A stretch of DNA of 64,000 nt from Escherichia phage vB_EcoM-UFV09. The DNA lies in the sequence record MZ291552.2; one strand, written 5' to 3'. Within the stretch, counting starts at the first letter, position 1; the number at the start of each line of letters is the position of its first letter. Below are positions 3,473-60,714 of the stretch, piece by piece. The notes below the pieces were generated by a model. That model ran no database searches, was not told the origin of the DNA, and was given only the letters and a program-made list of their open reading frames with translations. The position numbers were made by a program, and so were the translations under genes.

Positions 3473-3897
3473 TGATTCTAATCCCTGAAACTCATGAATT
3501 AGTTCTCGAGAATGTCGAAGCACTTATTCCTGAAGCACAGGGTCGCTTTGACGAGTTGTCTTCTGCTTTAAATAAAGACGATATAAATAAAATTATCGAG
3601 AATATGCTTGATGATGAAACTGATTTAGCGGTTGCATTAGCTTCTATTAATGAAAATATGCCGTTAAATGAATTTATCGTTAAACATGTTTCTGCCCGTG
3701 GTGAAATTACTCGCACTAAAGATCGCAAAACCCGCGAACGTAATGCATTTCAAACTACCGGGTTGTCTAAAGCAAAACGTAGACAAATTGCTCGTAAAGC
3801 TACCAAAACGAAGATTGCCAATCCAGCAGGTCAATCTCGTGCTCAGCGTAAGCGTAAAAAAGCTCTCAAACGCCGTAAAGCATTAGGATTAAGCTAA
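3472..3897 (+). CDS. 68: Prohead core protein
   Basis: 141 aa, same as T4 gp68; basic C-terminus; synteny. Confidence 0.8.
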
Positions 3898-4535
3898 TGA
3901 ATGAACCCCAATTACTAATTGAAACTTGGGGTCAACCTGGCGAAATTATTGATGGCGTACCAATGCTTGAATCCCATGATGGAAAAGACTTAGGTTTAAA
4001 ACCTGGTTTATACATCGAAGGAATATTCATGCAAGCGGAAGTCGTCAATAGAAATAAACGTCTTTATCCAAAACGTATATTAGAAAAAGCGGTAAAAGAC
4101 TATATCAATGAGCAAGTTTTAACTAAACAAGCTCTCGGAGAATTAAATCATCCTCCACGCGCTAATGTTGACCCGATGCAAGCCGCTATCATTATAGAAG
4201 ATATGTGGTGGAAAGGAAATGACGTATACGGACGAGCTCGTGTTATTGAAGGTGACCATGGTCCTGGAGATAAATTAGCAGCTAATATTCGTGCCGGATG
4301 GATTCCAGGAGTTTCTTCTCGTGGATTAGGTTCATTGACTGACACAAATAAAGGTTATCGTATCGTAAACGAAGGATTCAAATTAACTGTAGGTGTTGAT
4401 GCAGTATGGGGTCCAAGTGCTCCAGATGCATGGGTAACTCCTAAGGAAATTACAGAATCACAGACGGCGGAAGCCGATACAAGTGCCGATGACGCCTATA
4501 TGGCTCTCGCAGAGGCCATGAAAAAAGCGTTATAA
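3897..4535 (+). CDS. 21: Prohead core scaffold protease
   Basis: 212 aa, same as T4 gp21; position between 68 and 22. Confidence 0.85.
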   Translation: MNEPQLLIETWGQPGEIIDGVPMLESHDGKDLGLKPGLYIEGIFMQAEVVNRNKRLYPKRILEKAVKDYINEQVLTKQALGELNHPPRANVDPMQAAIIIEDMWWKGNDVYGRARVIEGDHGPGDKLAANIRAGWIPGVSSRGLGSLTDTNKGYRIVNEGFKLTVGVDAVWGPSAPDAWVTPKEITESQTAEADTSADDAYMALAEAMKKAL

Positions 4536-4538
4536 ATA
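4531..4538 (+). promoter_or_regulatory. T4-type late promoter box TATAAATA
   Basis: Exact TATAAATA overlapping the gene 21 stop, about 28 bp upstream of gene 22. Confidence 0.5.
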
Positions 4539-4565
4539 TTATTATCTAAACAACAGGACTACAAA

Positions 4566-5375
4566 ATGCTTAAAGAACAACTGATTGCCGAAGCGCAGAA
4601 AATTGATGCTTCCGTTGCTCTTGATAGTATTTTCGAATCAGTTAATATTTCTCCGGAAGCAAAAGAAACTTTCGGCACTGTATTCGAAGCTACCGTCAAG
4701 CAGCACGCCGTTAAATTAGCTGAATCTCATATCGCTAAAATTGCTGAAAAAGCAGAAGAAGAAGTAGAAAAAAATAAAGAAGAAGCAGAAGAAAAAGCTG
4801 AGAAGAAAATCGCTGAGCAAGCTTCTAAATTCCTTGACCATCTTGCAAAAGAATGGCTCACTGAAAATAAATTAGCAGTAGATAAAGGTATCAAAGCCGA
4901 ACTGTTTGAATCCATGCTTGGTGGATTGAAAGAGCTCTTCGTTGAACACAACGTTGTTGTTCCAGAAGAATCAGTTGATGTTGTAGCTGAAATGGAAGAA
5001 GAACTGCAAGAACATAAAGAAGAATCAGCTCGTCTGTTCGAAGAACTCAATAAGCGTGACGCATATATCAATTATGTGCAGCGTGAAGTGGCATTGAGCG
5101 AAAGTACTAAAGATCTGACTGAGTCTCAAAAAGAAAAAGTCTCTGCTCTGGTCGAAGGTATTGATTATTCAGATGCATTCTCAAGCAAATTGAGTGCCAT
5201 CGTAGAAATGGTGAAGAAATCTAATAAAGATGAAAGCACTATTACTGAGAGTATAAATACTCCTGATACTGAAGCAGCCGGACTGAATTTCGTCACTGAA
5301 GCTGTAGAAGATAAATCTGCGCAAGGTGCAGAAGATATTGTAAGTGTATATGCGAAAGTCGCATCTCGTTTCTAA
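4566..5375 (+). CDS. 22: Major prohead scaffolding core protein
   Basis: 269 aa, same as T4 gp22; Glu/Lys-rich coiled-coil-like composition; synteny. Confidence 0.85.
   Translation: MLKEQLIAEAQKIDASVALDSIFESVNISPEAKETFGTVFEATVKQHAVKLAESHIAKIAEKAEEEVEKNKEEAEEKAEKKIAEQASKFLDHLAKEWLTENKLAVDKGIKAELFESMLGGLKELFVEHNVVVPEESVDVVAEMEEELQEHKEESARLFEELNKRDAYINYVQREVALSESTKDLTESQKEKVSALVEGIDYSDAFSSKLSAIVEMVKKSNKDESTITESINTPDTEAAGLNFVTEAVEDKSAQGAEDIVSVYAKVASRF
5252..5259 (+). promoter_or_regulatory. Candidate late promoter for gene 23, inside the 3' end of gene 22
   Basis: Exact TATAAATA about 135 bp upstream of the gene 23 start. Confidence 0.4.
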
Positions 5376-5393
5376 TTTTAAAGGTTAACACAA

Positions 5394-6959
5394 ATGACTA
5401 TCAAAACTAAAGCTGAACTTTTGAACAAATGGAAGCCATTACTGGAAGGTGAAGGTTTACCGGAAATTGCTAATAGCAAACAAGCGATTATCGCTAAAAT
5501 CTTTGAAAACCAGGAAAAAGATTTCCAGACAGCTCCGGAATATAAAGACGAAAAAATTGCTCAGGCATTCGGTTCTTTCTTAACAGAAGCTGAAATCGGT
5601 GGTGACCACGGTTACAATGCTACCAACATCGCTGCAGGTCAGACTTCTGGCGCAGTAACCCAGATTGGCCCGGCTGTTATGGGTATGGTACGTCGTGCTA
5701 TTCCTAACCTGATTGCTTTCGATATTTGTGGTGTTCAGCCAATGAACAGCCCGACTGGTCAGGTATTCGCACTGCGCGCAGTATATGGTAAAGATCCAAT
5801 CGCTTCCGGCGCTAAAGAAGCATTCCACCCAATGTATGGTCCAGATGCAATGTTCTCTGGTCAGGGTGCTGCTAAGAAATTCGCTGCTTTGAAAGCAAGT
5901 GATACTCTTGAAGTTGGAACTATTTACACCCACTTCTTCCAGGACACTGGTACAGTATATCTGCAAGCTACAGAAGCTAAACAAATTGATTCAGGCGCAT
6001 CTGACGCAGCTAAATTAGATGCTGAAATTAAGAAACAAATGGAAGCAGGTGTACTGGTAGAAATCGCTGAAGGTATGGCTACTTCTATCGCTGAACTTCA
6101 GGAAGGTTTTAACGGTTCTACCGATAACCCATGGAATGAAATGGGCTTCCGTATCGATAAGCAAGTTATCGAAGCTAAATCTCGTCAGCTGAAAGCTGCT
6201 TACTCTATTGAATTAGCACAAGACCTCCGCGCTGTTCACGGTATGGATGCTGATGCTGAACTGTCTGGTATTCTGGCTACAGAAATTATGCTGGAAATCA
6301 ACCGTGAAGTTGTTGATTGGATTAACTACTCCGCTCAGGTTGGTAAATCTGGTATGACCCTGACTCCGGGTTCTAAAGCTGGTGTATTCGACTTCCAGGA
6401 CCCAATCGATATTCGTGGTGCTCGCTGGGCGGGTGAATCCTTTAAAGCTCTGTTGTTCCAGATTGACAAAGAAGCAGTTGAAATTGCTCGTCAGACCGGT
6501 CGTGGTGAAGGTAACTTCATTATTGCTTCCCGTAACGTAGTTAACGTTCTGGCTTCAGTTGATACCGGCATTTCTTATGCTGCACAGGGTCTGGCTACCG
6601 GCTTTAACACTGATACTACCAAGTCAGTATTTGCTGGTGTTCTGGGTGGTAAATACCGTGTATATATCGACCAGTATGCTAAACAGGATTATTTCACTGT
6701 AGGTTATAAAGGTCCGAACGAAATGGATGCTGGTATTTACTACGCTCCATATGTAGCTCTGACTCCACTGCGTGGTTCTGATCCGAAGAACTTCCAACCG
6801 GTAATGGGGTTCAAAACTCGTTACGGTATCGGTATCAACCCATTTGCAGAATCCGCTGCTCAGGCTCCGGCTTCTCGCATTCAGAGTGGTATGCCTTCTA
6901 TCCTGAACAGCCTTGGTAAGAACGCTTACTTCCGCCGTGTATATGTTAAAGGTATCTAA
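5394..6959 (+). CDS. 23: Major capsid protein
   Basis: 521 aa; N-terminus MTIKTKAELLNKWKPLLEGEG recognised as T4 gp23; strong codon bias typical of a highly expressed gene. Confidence 0.95.
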   Translation: MTIKTKAELLNKWKPLLEGEGLPEIANSKQAIIAKIFENQEKDFQTAPEYKDEKIAQAFGSFLTEAEIGGDHGYNATNIAAGQTSGAVTQIGPAVMGMVRRAIPNLIAFDICGVQPMNSPTGQVFALRAVYGKDPIASGAKEAFHPMYGPDAMFSGQGAAKKFAALKASDTLEVGTIYTHFFQDTGTVYLQATEAKQIDSGASDAAKLDAEIKKQMEAGVLVEIAEGMATSIAELQEGFNGSTDNPWNEMGFRIDKQVIEAKSRQLKAAYSIELAQDLRAVHGMDADAELSGILATEIMLEINREVVDWINYSAQVGKSGMTLTPGSKAGVFDFQDPIDIRGARWAGESFKALLFQIDKEAVEIARQTGRGEGNFIIASRNVVNVLASVDTGISYAAQGLATGFNTDTTKSVFAGVLGGKYRVYIDQYAKQDYFTVGYKGPNEMDAGIYYAPYVALTPLRGSDPKNFQPVMGFKTRYGIGINPFAESAAQAPASRIQSGMPSILNSLGKNAYFRRVYVKGI

Positions 6960-6974
6960 TCTTTGACGATTTAA

Positions 6975-7005
6975 GGGACCTTCGGGTCCCTTTAGTTGTT
7001 TTTAT
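6975..7005 (+). terminator. Rho-independent terminator after gene 23
   Basis: gggacc-ttcg-ggtccc hairpin followed by a T-rich tract. Confidence 0.7.
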
Positions 7006-7007
7006 GG

Positions 7008-7015
7008 TATAAATA
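7008..7015 (+). promoter_or_regulatory. T4-type late promoter box TATAAATA
   Basis: Exact TATAAATA about 28 bp upstream of gene 24. Confidence 0.5.
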
Positions 7016-7042
7016 AATCATATAAACTGAAAGGAAAGCGCA

Positions 7043-8326
7043 ATGGCTAAAATCAACGAACTTCTGCGCGAATCAACCACAACGAATAGCAACTCAATCG
7101 GTCGCCCAAATCTCGTTGCTTTGACTCGCGCTACCACTAAATTAATATATTCTGACATTGTAGCAACGCAAAGAACTAATCAACCTGTTGCTGCTTTTTA
7201 TGGTATCAAATACCTTAACCCAGACAACGAATTTACATTTAAAACTGGTGCTACTTATGCTGGCGAAGCTGGATATGTAGACCGAGAACAAATCACAGAA
7301 TTAACAGAAGAGTCTAAATTAACTCTCAATAAAGGCGATTTATTCAAATATAATAATATCGTTTATAAAGTATTAGAAGATACACCATTTGCTGATATTG
7401 AAGAAAGTGATTTAGAATTAGCTCTTCAGATTGCAATTGTTCTTTTAAAGGTTCGTCTATTTTCTGACGCAGCGTCAACAAGCAAATTTGAAAGCTCTGA
7501 TAGTGAAATTGCGGATGCTAGATTCCAGATTAATAAATGGCAAACCGCAGTTAAATCTCGCAAACTTAAAACTGGTATCACAGTTGAATTAGCACAAGAT
7601 TTAGAAGCAAACGGATTCGATGCTCCTAATTTCTTAGAAGATTTGCTTGCAACCGAAATGGCAGATGAAATCAATAAAGATATTCTGCAGTCTTTGATTA
7701 CAGTATCAAAACGTTATAAAGTTACAGGAATTACTGATACTGGATTCATTGATTTGAGTTATGCATCTGCACCTGAAGCTGGTCGTTCATTATACCGAAT
7801 GGTATGCGAAATGGTTTCACATATCCAGAAAGAATCAACTTATACTGCAACGTTCTGTGTTGCTTCAGCTCGTGCTGCTGCGATTCTTGCTGCATCAGGT
7901 TGGTTAAAACATAAACCAGAAGATGATAAATATCTTTCACAAAATGCCTATGGGTTCTTAGCTAATGGTTTGCCGCTTTATTGCGATACTAACAGCCCAT
8001 TAGATTATGTAATCGTTGGCGTAGTAGAAAATATCGGTGAAAAAGAAATTGTTGGATCAATTTTCTATGCTCCATATACAGAAGGTCTCGACTTAGATGA
8101 CCCTGAACATGTAGGTGCATTTAAAGTTGTGGTTGATCCAGAAAGCTTACAACCGTCTATCGGTTTATTAGTTAGATATGCTTTATCTGCAAATCCTTAC
8201 ACCGTAGCAAAAGATGAAAAAGAAGCAAGAGTAATTGATGGTGGAGACATGGATAAAATGGCGGGTCGTTCAGATTTGTCTGTTTTATTAGGTGTTAAGC
8301 TACCGAAAATTATCATTGATGAATAA
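7043..8326 (+). CDS. 24: Capsid vertex protein
   Basis: 427 aa, same as T4 gp24; follows gene 23. Confidence 0.9.
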   Translation: MAKINELLRESTTTNSNSIGRPNLVALTRATTKLIYSDIVATQRTNQPVAAFYGIKYLNPDNEFTFKTGATYAGEAGYVDREQITELTEESKLTLNKGDLFKYNNIVYKVLEDTPFADIEESDLELALQIAIVLLKVRLFSDAASTSKFESSDSEIADARFQINKWQTAVKSRKLKTGITVELAQDLEANGFDAPNFLEDLLATEMADEINKDILQSLITVSKRYKVTGITDTGFIDLSYASAPEAGRSLYRMVCEMVSHIQKESTYTATFCVASARAAAILAASGWLKHKPEDDKYLSQNAYGFLANGLPLYCDTNSPLDYVIVGVVENIGEKEIVGSIFYAPYTEGLDLDDPEHVGAFKVVVDPESLQPSIGLLVRYALSANPYTVAKDEKEARVIDGGDMDKMAGRSDLSVLLGVKLPKIIIDE

Positions 8327-50711: not shown

Positions 50712-53700
50712 ATGGCCGAGATTAAAAGAAAGTTCAGAGCAGAAGACGGTCTGGACGCAGGTGGTGATAAAATAATCAACGTAGCTTTAGCTGATCGTAC
50801 CGTAGGAACTGACGGTGTTAACGTTGATTACTTAATTCAAGAAAACACAGTTCAACAATATGATCCAACTCGTGGATATTTAAAAGATTTTGTAATCATT
50901 TATGATAACCGCTTTTGGGCTGCTATAAATGATATTCCAAAACCAGCAGGAGCTTTTAATAGCGTACGATGGAGAGCGTTACGTACTGATGCAAACTGGA
51001 CAACTGTTTCGTCAGGACCTTATCAATTAAAATCAGGCGAATCGATTTCAGTTAACACTGCAGCGGGTAATGACATTACATTTACTTTGCCATCTTCTCC
51101 AATTGATGGTGATACTATCGTTCTCCAAGATATTGGAGGAAAACCTGGAGTTAACCAGGTTTTAATTACAGCTCCGGTACAAAGCATTGTAAACTTTAGA
51201 GGTCAACAAGTACGCTCAGTACTAATGACTCATCCAAAATCACAGATAGTTTTAATTTTTAGTAATCGTCTGTGGCAAATGTATGTTGCTGATTATAGCA
51301 GAGAAGCGGCAGTTGTAACGCCAGCGAGTCTTTATCAAGCGCAATCAAACGATTTTATCGTGCGTAGATTTACTTCTGCTTCAGCAATTAATATTAAACT
51401 TCCTAGATTTGCTAATCATGGGGATATTATTAATTTTGTTGATTTAGATAAATTAAATCCGTTATATCATACTATCGTTACTACATACGATGAAACGACT
51501 TCAGTACAAGAAGTTGGAACTCATTCCATTGAAGGCCGTACATCTATTGATGGTTTCTTAATGTTTGATGATAATGAGAAATTGTGGAGATTATTTGACG
51601 GTGATAGTAAAGCGCGTTTACGCATTATAACAACTAATTCAAACATTCGTCCAAATGAAGAAGTCATGGTATTTGGCGCGAATAATGGAACAACTCAAAC
51701 GATTGAACTTCAGCTTCCAACTGATATTTCTATCGGTGATACTGTTAAGATTTCCATGAATTACATGAGAAAAGGACAAACAGTTAAAATCAAAGCTGCC
51801 GGTGAAGATAAAATTGCTTCTTCAGTTCAATTGTTGCAATTTCCAAAACGTTCAGAATACCCACCTGAAACTAAATGGGTGACTGTTCAAGAATTAGTTT
51901 TTAACGGCGAAACTAATTATGTTCCAGTTTTACAGCTTGCTTATATCGAAGATTCCGATGGAAAATATTGGGTTGTACAGCAAAACGTTCCAACAGTTGA
52001 AAGAGTAGACTCTTTAAATAATTCTACTAGAGCAAGATTAGGTGTAATTGCATTAGCTACACAGGCTCAAGCTAATGCAGATTTAGAAAATTCTCCACAA
52101 AAAGAATTGGCAATTACTCCAGAAACGTTAGCTAATCGTACTGCTACAGAAACTCGTAGAGGTATTGCAAGAATAGCAACAACTGCGCAAGTAAACCAGG
52201 ATACCACATTCTCTTTTGCAGATGACCTTATCATCACTCCTAAAAAGTTGAATGAAAGAACTGCTACAGAAACTCGCAGAGGTGTCGCAGAAATTGCTAC
52301 GCAGCAGGAAACTAATACAGGTACTGATGATACTACAATCATTACTCCTAAAAAGCTTCAAGCTCGCCAAGGTTCTGAATCATTATCTGGTATTGTAACT
52401 TTTGTATCTACTGCAGGAGCTACTCCAGCTTCTAGCCGCGAATTAAATGGTACGAATGTTTATAATAAAAACACTAATAACTTAGTTGTTTCACCTAAAG
52501 CCTTGGATCAGTATAAAGCTACTCCAACACAGCAAGGTGCGGTAATTTTAGCAGTTGAAAGTGAAGTAATTGCTGGACAAAGTCAAGAAGGATGGGCAAA
52601 TGCGGTTGTAACGCCAGAAACGTTACATAAAAAGACATCAACTGATGGAAGAATTGGTTTAATTGAAATTGCTACTCAAAGTGAAGTTAATACAGGAACT
52701 GATTATACTCGTGCAGTCACTCCTAAAACTTTAAATGACCGTAGAGCAACTGAAAGTTTAAGTGGTATAGCTGAAATTGCTACACAAGTTGAATTCGACG
52801 CAGGCGTCGACGATACTCGTATCTCTACACCATTAAAAATTAAAACTAGATTTAATAGTACTGATCGTACTTCAATTGCTACACAAGTTGAATTCGACGC
52901 AGGCGTCGACGATACTCGTATCTCTACACCATTAAAAATTAAAACTAGATTTAATAGTACTGATCGTACTTCTGTTGTTGCTCTATCTGGATTAGTTGAA
53001 TCAGGAACTCTCTGGGACCATTATACCCTTAATATTCTTGAAGCAAATGAGACACAACGTGGTACACTTCGTGTGGCTACACAAGTTGAAGCTGCTGCCG
53101 GAAAATTAGATAATGTTTTAATAACTCCTAAAAAGCTTTTAGGTACTAAATCTACCGAATCGCAAGAAGGTGTTATTAAAGTTGCAACTCAGTCTGAAAC
53201 TGTGGCTGGAACGTCAGTAAACACTGCTGTATCTCCAAAAAATTTAAAATGGATTGTACAGAGTGAACCTACCTGGGCAGCTACTACTGCGATAAGAGGT
53301 TTTGTTAAAACTTCATCTGGTTCAATTACATTTGTCGGTAATGATACAGTCGGTTCTACCCAAGATTTAGAACTGTATGAGAAAAATAGCTATGCAGTAT
53401 CACCATATGAATTAAACCGTGTATTAGCAAATTATTTGCCATTAAAAGCAAAAGCTGCAGATAGTAATTTATTGGATGGTCTAGATTCATCTCAGTTCAT
53501 TCGTAGGGACATTGCGCAGACGGTTAATGGTTCACTAACCTTAACCCAACAAACGAATCTGAGTGCCCCTCTTGTATCATCTAGTACTGCTACGTTTGGT
53601 GGATCAGTTTCAGCAAATAGTACATTAACTATTTCTAATACTGGAACAGCAACTCGATTGATTTTTGAGAAAGGACCTCAAACTGGAACAAACCCAGCCC

Positions 53701-54680
53701 AAACGATGACTGTTAGAGTGTGGGGAAATCAATTTAGTGGGGAATTAGATACAACACGTTCTACCGTATTTGAAGTTAGTGATGAAACATCTAGTCATTT
53801 TTATTCTCAGCGCAATAAAGCCGGAAATATAACATTTAATATCAACGGTACAGTAACACCGATAAATGTTAATGCTTCAGGAACATTGAATGCAAATGGC
53901 GTAGCAACATTTGGTAATTCAGTCACTGCAACTGGTGAAATTATTTCTCGAAGCGCAAATGCTTTCCGTGCTATTAACGGAAATTATGGTTTCATTGTTC
54001 GCAATGATGGATCAGTAACGAATTTTATGCTTACTGCATCGGGTGATCAGACTGGTGGATTTAACGGATTACGTCCTTTGGCTATTAATAATGCATCTGG
54101 TCAAGTAACGATTGGTGAAAGCTTAATCATCGCCAAAGGTGCTACTATAAATTCTGGTGGTTTAACTGTTAATTCGAGAATTCGTTCTCAAGGTACTAAA
54201 ACTTCTGATTTATATACCCGTGCGCCAACATCTGATACTGTAGGATTCTGGTCAATTGATATTAATGATTCAGCTACTTATAACCAGTTCCCCGGTTATT
54301 TTAAAATGGTTGAAAAAACTAATGAAGTGACTGGACTTCCGTACTTAGAACGTGGCGAAGAAGTTAAATCTCCTGGTACACTGACACAGTTTGGTAACAC
54401 ACTTGATTCGCTTTACCAAGATTGGATTACTTATCCAACGACACCAGAAGCGCGTACCACTCGTTGGACCCGCACATGGCAGAAAACCAAAAATTCTTGG
54501 TCAAGTTTTGTTCAGGTATTTGATGGAGGTAACCCTCCTCAACCGTCTGATATCGGTGCTTTACCATCTGATAATGCTACAATGGGGAATCTTACTATTC
54601 GTGATTTCTTACGAATTGGTAATGTTCGCATTATTCCTGACCCAGTGAATAAAACTGTTAAATTTGAATGGGTTGAATAA
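50712..54680 (+). CDS. 34: Long tail fibre proximal subunit
   Basis: 1322 aa (T4 gp34 1289 aa); characteristic repeated ITPK/ATE-RRG-A-IAT motifs; starts the tail fibre operon. Confidence 0.9.
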   Translation: MAEIKRKFRAEDGLDAGGDKIINVALADRTVGTDGVNVDYLIQENTVQQYDPTRGYLKDFVIIYDNRFWAAINDIPKPAGAFNSVRWRALRTDANWTTVSSGPYQLKSGESISVNTAAGNDITFTLPSSPIDGDTIVLQDIGGKPGVNQVLITAPVQSIVNFRGQQVRSVLMTHPKSQIVLIFSNRLWQMYVADYSREAAVVTPASLYQAQSNDFIVRRFTSASAINIKLPRFANHGDIINFVDLDKLNPLYHTIVTTYDETTSVQEVGTHSIEGRTSIDGFLMFDDNEKLWRLFDGDSKARLRIITTNSNIRPNEEVMVFGANNGTTQTIELQLPTDISIGDTVKISMNYMRKGQTVKIKAAGEDKIASSVQLLQFPKRSEYPPETKWVTVQELVFNGETNYVPVLQLAYIEDSDGKYWVVQQNVPTVERVDSLNNSTRARLGVIALATQAQANADLENSPQKELAITPETLANRTATETRRGIARIATTAQVNQDTTFSFADDLIITPKKLNERTATETRRGVAEIATQQETNTGTDDTTIITPKKLQARQGSESLSGIVTFVSTAGATPASSRELNGTNVYNKNTNNLVVSPKALDQYKATPTQQGAVILAVESEVIAGQSQEGWANAVVTPETLHKKTSTDGRIGLIEIATQSEVNTGTDYTRAVTPKTLNDRRATESLSGIAEIATQVEFDAGVDDTRISTPLKIKTRFNSTDRTSIATQVEFDAGVDDTRISTPLKIKTRFNSTDRTSVVALSGLVESGTLWDHYTLNILEANETQRGTLRVATQVEAAAGKLDNVLITPKKLLGTKSTESQEGVIKVATQSETVAGTSVNTAVSPKNLKWIVQSEPTWAATTAIRGFVKTSSGSITFVGNDTVGSTQDLELYEKNSYAVSPYELNRVLANYLPLKAKAADSNLLDGLDSSQFIRRDIAQTVNGSLTLTQQTNLSAPLVSSSTATFGGSVSANSTLTISNTGTATRLIFEKGPQTGTNPAQTMTVRVWGNQFSGELDTTRSTVFEVSDETSSHFYSQRNKAGNITFNINGTVTPINVNASGTLNANGVATFGNSVTATGEIISRSANAFRAINGNYGFIVRNDGSVTNFMLTASGDQTGGFNGLRPLAINNASGQVTIGESLIIAKGATINSGGLTVNSRIRSQGTKTSDLYTRAPTSDTVGFWSIDINDSATYNQFPGYFKMVEKTNEVTGLPYLERGEEVKSPGTLTQFGNTLDSLYQDWITYPTTPEARTTRWTRTWQKTKNSWSSFVQVFDGGNPPQPSDIGALPSDNATMGNLTIRDFLRIGNVRIIPDPVNKTVKFEWVE
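52775..52972 (+). repeat. Perfect 99-bp in-frame tandem duplication inside gene 34 (33 aa duplicated)
   Basis: Two identical 99-nt units; encoded IATQVEFDAGVDDTRISTPLKIKTRFNSTDRTS appears twice in succession. Confidence 0.85.
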
Positions 54681-56531: not shown

Positions 56532-59500
56532 ATGGCTACTTTAAAACAAATACAATTTAAAAGAAGCAAAACGGCAGGTCAACGTCCAGCTGCTTCAGTA
56601 TTAGCCGAAGGTGAATTGGCTATAAACTTAAAAGACCGTGTACTTTTTACTAAAGATGACCAGGGAAATATTATTGATTTAGGTTTTGCTAAAGGCGGTA
56701 GTATTGACGGGAATGTTATTCATAAAGGCAATTATAACCAAACTGGAGATTATACTTTAAACGGTACATTCACCCAGACTGGTAATTTTAATTTAACCGG
56801 TATTGCTCGAGTAACTCGTGATATTATTGCTGCTGGGCAGATTATGACTGAAGGCGGAGAACTTATTACAAAAAGTTCAGGTACATCACATGTTCGTTTT
56901 CATGATTCAGCTGACCGTGAACGCGGTATTATTTTTTCTCCTGCTAATGATGGATTAACTACACAAGTAATTAACATCAGAGTTCAAGATTACAAAGCCG
57001 GTTCAGAAAATACTTTTTCTTTTAGCGGTAGTGGTCTTTTCACATCGCCGGAAGTTTCTGCATGGAAATCTATGTCAACCCCCCAGATTTTGACTAACAA
57101 AGTCATTACTAATAATAAATCTACGAGTGATTATGACATTTATTCGATGGCAGACAATGTTCCATTGTCTGAAAGCACTACTGCTATTAATCATCTTCGT
57201 GTTATGCGTAATGCAGTTGGTTCTGGTATTTTTCATGAAGTTAAAGATAATGATGGAATAACATGGTATAGTGGAGATGGATTAGATGCTTATCTGTGGT
57301 CATTTACCTGGAGCGGCGGAATTAAATCAAGTCACTCAATTTCCATCGGTTTAACACCCGGACCTAAGGATTACTCAATATTAGGACCGTCTAGTATCGC
57401 TTTAGGAGATAATGATACTGGATTTAAATGGCATCAAGACGGATATTATTTCAGTGTTAACAATGGCACAAAAACGTTTTTATTTAGTCCCAGCGAAACA
57501 ACTAGCCTAAGAAAATTTGTAGCTGGATATTCTACTAACGGAACCGATTTAACTACTCCTCCAACTGAAAATTATGCTCTTGCTACTGTAGTGACATACC
57601 ACGATAATAACGCGTTTGAAGATGGTCAGACTCTTTTAGGATATTATCAAGGCGGTAATTATCATCACTATTTCCGCGGTAAAGGTACTACAAACATTAA
57701 TACTCACGGTGGTTTGTTAGTTACTCCTGGTAATATTGACGTTATTGGTGGTTCTGTTAATATCGATGGTAGAAATAATGCTTCTACACTGATGTTTAGA
57801 GGTAACACAACTGGTAGTAGTTCAGTTGATAATATGACAATTTCCGTTTGGGGCAATACGTTTACTAATCCTAGTGTAGGTAATCGTAAAAACGTCATGG
57901 AAATTTCTGATGCAACTAGTTGGATGAGCTATATTCAAAGACTTACAACAGGTGAAGTAGAAATGAACGTTAACGGTTCATTTGAATCATCTGGTGTTAC
58001 TGCTGGAAATAGAGGAGTTCACACAACAGGCGAAATTTCATCTGGAGCAGTGAATGCGCTTCGTATTTGGAACGCAGATTATGGAGCCATTTTTAGACGT
58101 TCAGAAGGTAGTCTTCATATTATTCCGACTGCTTATGGTGAAGGCAAAAATGGTGATATCGGTCCACTTCGTCCATTTAGTATTGCTTTGGATACTGGTA
58201 AGGTTGTTATTCCAGATTTAGAATCAAGTTATAACACGTTTGCTGCAAATGGCTACATTAAATTTGCTGGTCATGGCGCGGGTGCAGGTGGTTATGATAT
58301 TCAGTATTCACAAGCTGCTCCTATTTTCCAAGAAATCGATGATGCTGCTGTAAGCAAATATTATCCTATTGTTAAACAGAAGTTTTTAAATGGTAAAGCT
58401 GTCTGGTCTTTGGGTACTGAAATTAATTCTGGTACATTTGTTTTACATCATTTGAAAGAAGATGGTTCACAAGGCCATACATCAAGATTTAATGCTGATG
58501 GTACAGTCAATTTCCCCGATAACGTTCAAGTCGGTGGTGGTGAAGCTACTATTGCTCGTAATGGTAATATTTTCTCAGATATTTGGAAATCGTTTACTTC
58601 TGCGGGAGAAACCACAAATATTCGCGATGCAATAGCTACTCGTGTTGCCAAAGAAGGCGATACGATGACTGGCAAATTAATCGTTAAAAGAGGCTCTGAC
58701 GCTATTAACATTGCTGCCGATGAAAATGATTCTTGCTATTTACTTGGAACATCGGGTGGAGCGAATTCATGGTACATTGGTAAAGGAGGAGCAGATGACA
58801 CTGCTTCATTTTATAATTTCAAAACTACCGCAGGAATTACTCTTAATAGTGTTGGTGATATTGATTTTAACGTTAAAAATCAAGCTACTGCAGCTTCATT
58901 AAATTTTTATCGTTTATATTTAAATGGAAGACAGTGGACAGCTACACAAGGACATGGATATAATAATCAATGGCAAACAGAAGCCCCATTCTTCGTTGAC
59001 TTTGGCGAATCTGTTCCGAAAGATAGTTATATGCCTATAATTAAAGGAAGAAGCCAAATCATTAACGAAGGATATGCCACAAAGGCAGATTTTGGTATTA
59101 TTCGATTAGGCGGAAATGCTACTTGGGGAAATGCAGTAATTCGTGTTGGTTCTGCAGAAAGCGGAGATAGCAGTCATCCTAATGCAATATTTGTGTTTCA
59201 GGCTAATGGCGATTTTAAAGCTCCGGCTGGCCTTCGTGCTGGTGTTAACTTGGGCGTCGGCACAATTCCAGTATGGGGCGGAGCATCTATCGCCATCGGT
59301 GATGATGATACCGGTTTAGTTCATGGCGGCGATGGTCGAATTAATATGTATGCTAACGCGCAGCATATTGCATCATGGGGCACGATGTATCAATCTCATC
59401 CAGGCCTTTGGGATTCATATGGAGCTTTTTGGACAGAAGTTGGCAAAGCAATTATTTCTCATGGCCATTTAGTTCAGGCGAATGACAGTTATTCCACATA

Positions 59501-59858
59501 TGTACGCGATGTTTATGTCCGCTCTGATATTCGTGTCAAAAAGGACCTAGTTAAATTTGAAAATGCTTCTGAGAAGCTTTCAAAAATTAACGGTTACACT
59601 TATATGCAGAAGCGAGGTCTAGATGAAGAAGGTAATCAAAAATGGGAACCTAACGCAGGTTTAATTGCTCAAGAAGTTCAAGCTATTTTACCTGAATTAG
59701 TTGAAGGCGATCAGGATGGTGAAGCACTACTTCGTTTGAACTACAACGGTGTAATCGGTTTAAATACAGCTGCAATCAATGAGCATACTGCAGAAATTGC
59801 AGAACTTAAGTCAGAGATTGAAGAGCTTAAAAAATTAGTCAAATCATTGTTAAAATAA
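56532..59858 (+). CDS. 37: Long tail fibre distal subunit with C-terminal chaperone-like domain
   Basis: 1108 aa; synteny; C-terminal [26 protein letters not shown]...[14 protein letters not shown] followed by a coiled-coil tail. Confidence 0.85.
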
Positions 59859-59863
59859 AATGA

Positions 59864-59877
59864 GGGGCTTCGGCCCC
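59864..59877 (+). terminator. Stem-loop with UUCG tetraloop directly after the gene 37 stop
   Basis: ggggc-ttcg-gcccc; weak U tract, so may be an attenuator or stability element. Confidence 0.4.
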
Positions 59878-59889
59878 TTGGAGGTTTAT

Positions 59890-60684
59890 ATGGCAGTTGA
59901 AGGACCGTGGGTAGGATGGTCTGCGAGGGTACAAACTGGAGACCCTTGGATGGGTGGTGCCGCGCAGAGATTGAGAATGGGAATTCCGTTTTGGATGAGT
60001 AATATGATAGGTCGATCTGTTGAAGTAATTCACACACTTGGAGCGGACCATAACTTCAATGGTCAATGGTTCCGAGATAGATGTTTTGAGGCAGGTAGTG
60101 CACCTATAGTGTTTAATATTACCGGAAATTTGGTATCATATTCTAGAGACGTTCCTTTATTCTTTATGTATGGAGATACACCTAATGAATATGTTCAGTT
60201 GAATATTGGTGGCGGCGTCCATATGTGGGGTAGAGGTGGACAAGGTGGATGGACTCATTCCGGCGGAGATGGTAATGGTCAACAAGGTGGTCATTGTATT
60301 CAAAATGACATCGGTGGACGATTAAGAATTAATAACGGTGGAGTAATTTGCGGTGGAGGTGGAGGTGGAGGTGGTATCGCTTATCGTCCTCGCTCTGGCG
60401 CAAAATGGCAAGATATTGGTGGTGGCGGTGGAAGACCATTTGGCCCAGGAGGTGGCGGCGGTTACTCGGGTGGCGCAGCTTCATACGACGGTCCAGGAGG
60501 TGGTTATCAATACGGAAATGCTCACTCCGGCCAGGGTGGCGATGCCGGAGGAAATGGACAAAATGCCTGGTCGGATGGCGGTAAAGTTCTAAAAGTTGGA
60601 GCTGGTGGCGCTGCCGGATATGCTGTTATAGGATCCGCTCCAACATGGCAAAATGTTGGAGTAATATATGGTCCAAGGGTATAA
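59890..60684 (+). CDS. 38: T2-type receptor-recognising adhesin with glycine-rich motifs
   Basis: 264 aa from MAVEGPW with GGAGG RBS; poly-Gly tracts separated by short variable segments; conserved C-terminus [22 protein letters not shown]. Confidence 0.8.
60352..60375 (+). repeat. (GGTGGA)x4 microsatellite encoding a poly-Gly tract in gene 38
   Basis: ggtggaggtggaggtggaggtggt read directly. Confidence 0.8.
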
Positions 60685-60714
60685 TTTGAATAAATATCCT
60701 TAAAAGGAGGGTCT

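Follow-up and report, generated by a model that had tools for sequence, protein, structure and literature searches.

Organisation of the tail fibre locus

The analysed stretch of 64,000 nucleotides from Escherichia phage vB_EcoM-UFV09, referred to below as the window, contained genes in the order gp34-gp35-gp36-gp37-gp38-holin, which is that of the long-tail-fibre cluster of T-even phages. Gene 37 was preceded by ORFs of 1322, 371 and 218 aa and followed by a glycine-rich ORF of 264 aa and another one of 218 aa. Its product is the distal subunit of the long tail fibre, a trimeric protein (PMC3157838), and displayed two Pfam domains, Gp34_trimer and Peptidase_S74. The gp37 region was 100% identical to that of Escherichia phages vB_EcoM-UFV10 and UFV11 (genus Tequatrovirus; UFV10 CDS UYL84401.1) and ~96.5% identical to that of phages wV7 and KIT03. 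In the GenBank record of UFV10 the identical gp37 CDS is annotated merely as "hypothetical protein" and gp38 carries the erroneous label "tail protein and peptidase"; the domain and gp38 identities given here improve on both labels. The features considered are collected in Table 1.

Table 1. Features of genes 37 and 38 in the window, with the evidence on which each was placed
Feature	Position	Strand	Evidence
Gene 37, distal subunit of the long tail fibre, 1108 aa plus stop	56532..59858	+	ORF, synteny, Pfam, GenBank identity
Last 40 residues of the predicted mature gp37 tip, 958-997 (...RDVYVR)	59403..59522	+	Alignment with 6F45_A, from its residue 55 to the cleavage site
Predicted autocleavage site Arg997/Ser998; Ser998 (59523-59525) is the predicted nucleophile	59520..59525	+	Alignment with S16
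Whole predicted intramolecular chaperone domain, residues 998-1108, 111 aa, 12.4 kDa	59523..59855	+	Pfam, 6F45_A alignment, model, Foldseek
Core Peptidase_S74 / chaperone-of-endosialidase match, residues 998-1057, with the GLIAQ...PE motif inside	59523..59702	+	Pfam PF13884
Lys1003, predicted general base of the Ser-Lys dyad (Ser + 5)	59538..59540	+	Conservation, alignment
C-terminal amphipathic helix of 37 residues, 1071-1107, with heptad pattern	59742..59852	+	DSSP on the model, heptad rows, DNA period
Gene 38, tail fibre adhesin of S16/T2 type, 264 aa	59890..60684	+	Pfam, matches to PDB 6F45_D and 9V85, GenBank start

The product of gene 38 was identified as the cognate adhesin. It matched the Pfam families GP38 (PF05268, E = 1.9e-68) and, at its N-terminus, the attachment domain Gp38_N (PF21721, E = 1.5e-19). 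It also aligned over its full length with the adhesin of Salmonella phage S16 (6F45_D, E = 9.1e-50), and 9V85 was matched as well. A longer ORF of 274 aa, starting at the ATG at 59860, was considered as gp38 and rejected: Gp38_N begins only at its residue 11, S16 gp38 aligns from the methionine at 59890, and this is also where the GenBank CDS starts.

The C-terminal chaperone domain of gp37

A preliminary description of this DNA, made without database searches, had quoted a C-terminal peptide of gp37 and likened it to the intramolecular chaperones (IMCs) that drive trimerisation of other fibre and spike proteins. The peptide occurred verbatim in the plus-strand ORF at 56532..59858, and the C-terminus of gp37 is a member of the curated Peptidase_S74 / intramolecular chaperone family. 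The corresponding profile, PF13884 (Peptidase_S74, "chaperone of endosialidase"), which had been named beforehand as the check on the chaperone reading, scored 48.4 bits with whole gp37, over profile positions 1-57 of 58. With the C-terminal 151 aa it scored 52.7 bits (E = 5.4e-14), the curated gathering cut-off being 22 bits. Each of the 32 homologues retrieved from the database for the last 171 gp37 residues carried the same domain. By tblastn the IMC domain was recovered from 1262 phage records, of which 176 reached at least 95% identity; the coverage ends at residue 90 of 112, since the program treats the final 22 residues as low complexity and masks them.

Among PDB sequences, the last 171 residues matched the gp37 construct of Salmonella phage S16 (6F45_A) with E = 9.1e-40, and more weakly the auto-processing domain of MyRF (7DC3) and a phage tail fibre (8JOV). 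A profile built from 25 homologues found 7DC3 (MyRF ICA) at E = 6.6e-10 and 8JOV at 7.9e-6, while the IMC of the GA-1 neck appendage (3GUD) was a weak match (0.061). The structures of endoNF (3GW6) and T5 pb1 (4UW8) were not reached by this sequence profile, even at E <= 10, and the link to the endosialidase and to T5 pb1 is based on the Pfam profile and on the fold search described below.

The domain occupied the extreme C-terminus of gp37, residues 998-1108 of 1108. The preliminary description had placed roughly 120 residues of chaperone from position 59480 onwards, which corresponds to codon 983; a domain was indeed found there, but it comprised 111 residues and began at Ser998 (59523), ending just before the TAA stop at 59856-59858.

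An AlphaFold2 model of the monomer, built on a 25-sequence alignment, was used for the fold. Within the IMC (modelled residues 994-1108) pLDDT ranged from 81 to 98 in blocks of ten residues, the final single-residue block excepted. DSSP assigned a beta-hairpin, its two strands spanning residues 84-93 and 99-107 of the fragment, and a helix spanning residues 134-170; both elements of the IMC fold, the beta-hairpin "tentacle" region and the long C-terminal helix, were thus present in the monomer model. In solved IMCs, a helical bundle is combined with three "tentacles" (PMC9608196). Foldseek searches against the PDB returned 7DC3 (MyRF ICA) with a probability of 1.00 and a TM-score of 0.63-0.67 on the target, followed by 3GW6, the "Intramolecular Chaperone" of endosialidase, with probabilities of 0.91-0.98 at only 12-14% sequence identity. 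Beyond 7DC3 and 3GW6, no PDB chain was found by Foldseek with E < 0.3. The likeness to C-terminal chaperone domains, first noticed from the letters of the gene, was thereby borne out in sequence (6F45_A) as well as in the predicted fold of the monomer.

The terminal helix, predicted with high confidence, displayed a regular heptad pattern. One heptad position was occupied by I1075, I1082, I1089, I1096 and V1103 and another by L1092, L1099 and L1106, which follow I1089, I1096 and V1103, respectively, at a distance of three residues; at the DNA level the tail was echoed as a period of 21 nt at 59791-59830. This pattern is compatible with the trimeric helix bundle which the IMC is presumed to form. 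It could also be taken for an independent and permanent coiled-coil trimerisation tag of the foldon kind, unrelated to any chaperone or protease domain, and the clean I/L pattern of about four heptads would suit such a tag. Against this stand the contiguity of the helix with the S74 core, its co-alignment with that core in S16, its inclusion in the part of the model that Foldseek matched to 7DC3 and 3GW6, and the presence of such a bundle in solved IMCs, all of which leave this alternative with a next to negligible probability. The 6F45_A alignment spans gp37 residues 958-1108, running through the heptad helix to the final residue, and the helix was for this reason counted as part of the IMC. 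It is an integral, presumably bundle-forming part of the domain and no separate appendage. Hence the heptads reported in the preliminary description were real, but their status as a coiled-coil tail next to the chaperone was not retained: a stand-alone coiled coil was contradicted by the S16 co-alignment and by the fold matches to 7DC3 and 3GW6.

Predicted cleavage, assembly and gp38 docking

The domain opened with S998-D-I-R-V-K1003 and so displayed a Ser-x4-Lys pair, which we take, following the literature on endoNF and MyRF, to be the catalytic dyad of the S74 family (Ser and Lys at +5). Both residues (Lys1003 being K66 of the fragment) were at least 90% conserved in the alignment of 25 sequences. 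The GLIAQ...PE core was kept as well, with invariant columns at G106, L107, I108, A109, Q110, P117 and E118 in fragment numbering. The gp37 segment DVYVR/SDIRVKK matched DLNVS/SDRRIKK of S16 column for column. Lys1003 paired with a lysine in S16, MyRF (7DC3) and 8JOV, and Ser998 with a serine in S16 and 8JOV and with an alanine in the 7DC3 chain. At the equivalent place T2 gp37 displayed NVYIR-SDIRLK, in the same domain.

Cleavage is predicted between Arg997 and Ser998, since the motif aligns with the reported S16 site and with its T2 equivalent. The site was assigned purely by alignment, and the residue preceding the nucleophile was arginine here and in T2 and serine in S16. A cut at this bond would divide the full-length chain of 119.4 kDa into a mature gp37 of 997 aa (computed mass 107.0 kDa) and a fragment of 111 aa (12.4 kDa). 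For S16 gp37, PMC7917993 describes autocleavage between two serines with release of the last 113 residues, and PMC7289586 states autoproteolysis as the mechanism for the IMCs of S16, K1F and T5. In T2 and T6 the gp37 C-terminus is proteolytically cleaved and the fibre is then capped by gp38, as given in PMC3157838, citing Drexler et al. 1986. Cleavage of gp37 goes without mention in the CASP13 author note on the S16 structure (PMC6851490) and in the paper on PP01 gp38 (PMC12892980).

If a distinct protease of host or phage origin, and not Ser998 and Lys1003, removed the C-terminus, this would agree with PMC3157838 insofar as this source reports the T2/T6 cleavage and names no protease. The Ser-x4-Lys dyad is, however, conserved across distant homologues including MyRF, and with autoproteolysis being the stated mechanism in S16, K1F and T5 the action of such a protease is highly improbable.

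The tip preceding the predicted site (residues 958-997) displayed moderate similarity to the distal beta-helix of S16. Its pLDDT was below 50 in the monomer model, as expected for a segment which folds only as an interdigitated trimeric beta-helix. In S16 the base of this beta-helix docks gp38 (PMC6851490, PMC7917993), three tryptophans of gp38 being inserted into hydrophobic pockets at that base (PMC6851490); the docking surface becomes exposed by removal of the IMC, as described in PMC7917993. The gp38 of the window kept all three, W7, W20 and W35 pairing with W7, W20 and W36 of S16 gp38.

These observations also bear on the possibility that the S74-type IMC aids trimerisation but stays uncleaved on the mature fibre, gp38 binding elsewhere or to the IMC itself. 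The P1 residue differing from that of S16 (Arg instead of Ser) would speak for it. It is nevertheless very unlikely, as both catalytic residues are conserved, T2 with the same R/SDIR-K context belongs to the group with reported gp37 cleavage (PMC3157838), and the tryptophans which dock onto the surface exposed in S16 only after IMC removal are kept here.

The reading that gp37 trimerises by means of its IMC, cleaves itself and is then capped at the tip by gp38 was given a probability of about 0.9. Nucleation of the trimer, self-cleavage of gp37 and the order of these events are proposed on the model of the homologous S16, T2, K1F and T5 systems. The IMCs would bring three nascent gp37 chains into register: their C-terminal helices would associate as a trimeric bundle, and the N-terminal parts of the IMCs would embrace the end of the fibre. 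The IMC trimer would then nucleate folding of the interdigitated triple beta-helix of gp37 from the C-terminus, in the C-to-N direction. Once the trimer has folded, Ser998, activated by Lys1003, would attack the bond between Arg997 and Ser998 in every chain, setting free the IMC of 12.4 kDa. One copy of gp38 may finally cap the base newly formed at the C-terminus of the 997-residue gp37 trimer; the N-terminal helical bundle of gp38 would insert W7, W20 and W35 into hydrophobic pockets of gp37. There is at best a slim chance that, in addition, an IMC of the S16 type, with its longer heptad helix, persists after cleavage as a non-covalent cap which is displaced by the cognate gp38 and so acts as a checkpoint for the compatibility of gp37 and gp38 subtypes.

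The chaperone reading of the preliminary description was thus supported by the profile, the Ser/Lys pair, the fold and the neighbouring gp38 of S16/T2 type, processing of this gp37 being proposed by homology. The finding is correct and already known: the domain belongs to an established Pfam family, S16 has been characterised both structurally and biochemically, and processing of T2-type gp37 has been known since 1986. In practice, constructs for expressing or swapping this fibre tip should keep the IMC together with the matching gp38 N-terminus, and the mature gp37 is predicted to end at Arg997.

Comparison with known systems

MyRF ICA (7DC3) was the best structural match to the gp37 IMC and carries a lysine at the equivalent of Lys1003. 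It belongs, however, to a membrane-bound transcription factor of eukaryotes, the cleavage of which frees an N-terminal DNA-binding trimer outside any fibre context. The IMCs of K1F endoNF (3GW6), T5 pb1 (4UW8) and GA-1 gp12 (3GUD) are members of the same Pfam family as that of gp37, and the one of endoNF was assigned to the same fold class by Foldseek. Like the mechanism proposed here, they bring about trimerisation of a triple beta-helix before excising themselves (PMC7289586), whereas their clients are tailspikes or other fibres which bind receptors directly, without a later adhesin cap.

T4 gp37 is encoded by the orthologous fibre gene at the same locus. In contrast to the present protein, T4 gp37 binds the receptor with a tip of its own, and its folding is carried out by two separate chaperones, gp38 and gp57A, T4 gp38 being no adhesin (PMC7289586, PMC3157838, PMC6851490).

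T2 gp37, like those of the T6/K3 type, shares the Tequatrovirus fibre architecture and has kept the S74 domain along with the VY(V/I)RSDIR(V/L)K motif. Over their last 170-171 residues, T2 gp37 and the present gp37 were nevertheless only 33% identical, which fits the known subtypes of compatibility between gp37 tip and gp38 N-terminus, T2 belonging to a different one (PMC3157838, PMC12892980). The T2 IMC is also shorter (99 aa), lacking the last ~11 residues of the heptad helix. As in S16, the terminal helix of the present gp37 exceeded that of T2 and most homologues by about 11-13 residues.

S16 gp37 (PDB 6F45, Dunne et al. 2018) was the closest in organisation, with the same gene position, a gp38 adhesin as partner and an S-D-x-x-x-K motif. 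The two sequences have diverged, and the S16 IMC is reported to comprise 113 residues, compared with 111 here; the remainder of gp37 was longer in the window (1108 aa in total). The alignment between the two proteins nonetheless covered the tip and all of the IMC with its extended terminal helix, and their gp38 partners displayed the same three tryptophans.

Features located in and around the tail fibre genes
Feature	Position in window (nt)	Location	Remarks
Tandem duplication, 99 bp (33 aa)	52775-52972	Inside gp34 (50712..54680)	In-frame, exact
C(UUCG)G tetraloop hairpin	59861-59880	Within the 31-nt gap, gp37 stop codon to gp38 start codon	
Mosaic boundary	~59270-59300	gp37 residues ~914-923	Nucleotide matches to T-even phages

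Possible length variation in gp34

The two copies of the gp34 duplication matched each other at 100 %, and the protein carrying them reached 1322 aa, with one extra shaft repeat (IATQVEFDAGVDDTRISTPLKIKTRFNSTDRTS). A single copy of the 99-bp unit was displayed by 12 out of 12 of the best-matching phage records listed, in which the 551 window bases of this stretch were aligned in two pieces with 452 record bases. UFV05, UFV06, UFV10 and UFV11 were among these single-copy records and the rest of the stretch was 100 % identical to the window; the gene was 3969 nt long in the window versus 3870 nt in UFV10. The duplication could be a genuine fibre-length variant, or else an assembly or sequence artefact.

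The junction between gp37 and gp38

The mechanical ORF list opened gp38 at ATG 59860, as a 274-aa product overlapping the gp37 stop codon (TAAAATG). This start was rejected, as the Pfam Gp38_N match to the long ORF does not begin until residue 11, the alignment with S16 gp38 begins at residue 1 of the short form, and the short form is the one used by GenBank. The conserved start of gp38 is ATG 59890, which yields 264 aa with the N-terminus MAVEGPW.

The hairpin located in this gap displayed an 8-bp stem (five G-C pairs), a centroid energy of -12.8 kcal/mol and a shuffle z-score of only -1.1. A GGAGG Shine-Dalgarno sequence was found directly downstream, and no T-run was encountered 3' of the hairpin. 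CUUCGG hairpins are known in T4 intercistronic regions; the one found here may act in mRNA stability or in translational coupling.

Annotation of gp37 and gp38 in public records

In OP555981.1, from Escherichia phage vB_EcoM-UFV10 and 100 % identical here, gp37 with its S74 peptidase domain (locus positions 3533-6859) was labelled "hypothetical protein", and the gp38 adhesin (6891-7685) "tail protein and peptidase"; these labels appear to be shifted.

Several 170-aa "tail fiber domain-containing proteins" assigned to Escherichia coli (P0001, P0004 and P0005, homologues of the gp37 C-terminus) were found on contigs of ~166-167 kb and began at an internal Met slightly upstream of the intramolecular chaperone domain (IMC). 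Their sources look like T-even phage genomes filed as E. coli contigs, in which gp37 would seem to be fragmented or miscalled.

Mosaicism of the gp37 tip

Many T-even phages, among them Jbel, AV119, HY03, FL08, F1, SH7 and others displayed 87-93 % identity to the window downstream of the mosaic boundary only. With 59000-60700 as query, their matches began at query positions 272-299 and the upstream sequences diverged. Besides the gp37 tip, the matched stretch took in both the IMC and gp38; these alignments are consistent with the three having been swapped as a single cassette. The boundary coincided with a G-D-x-D-T-G motif, which T2 likewise possesses (FGDSDTGIKQNGDG).
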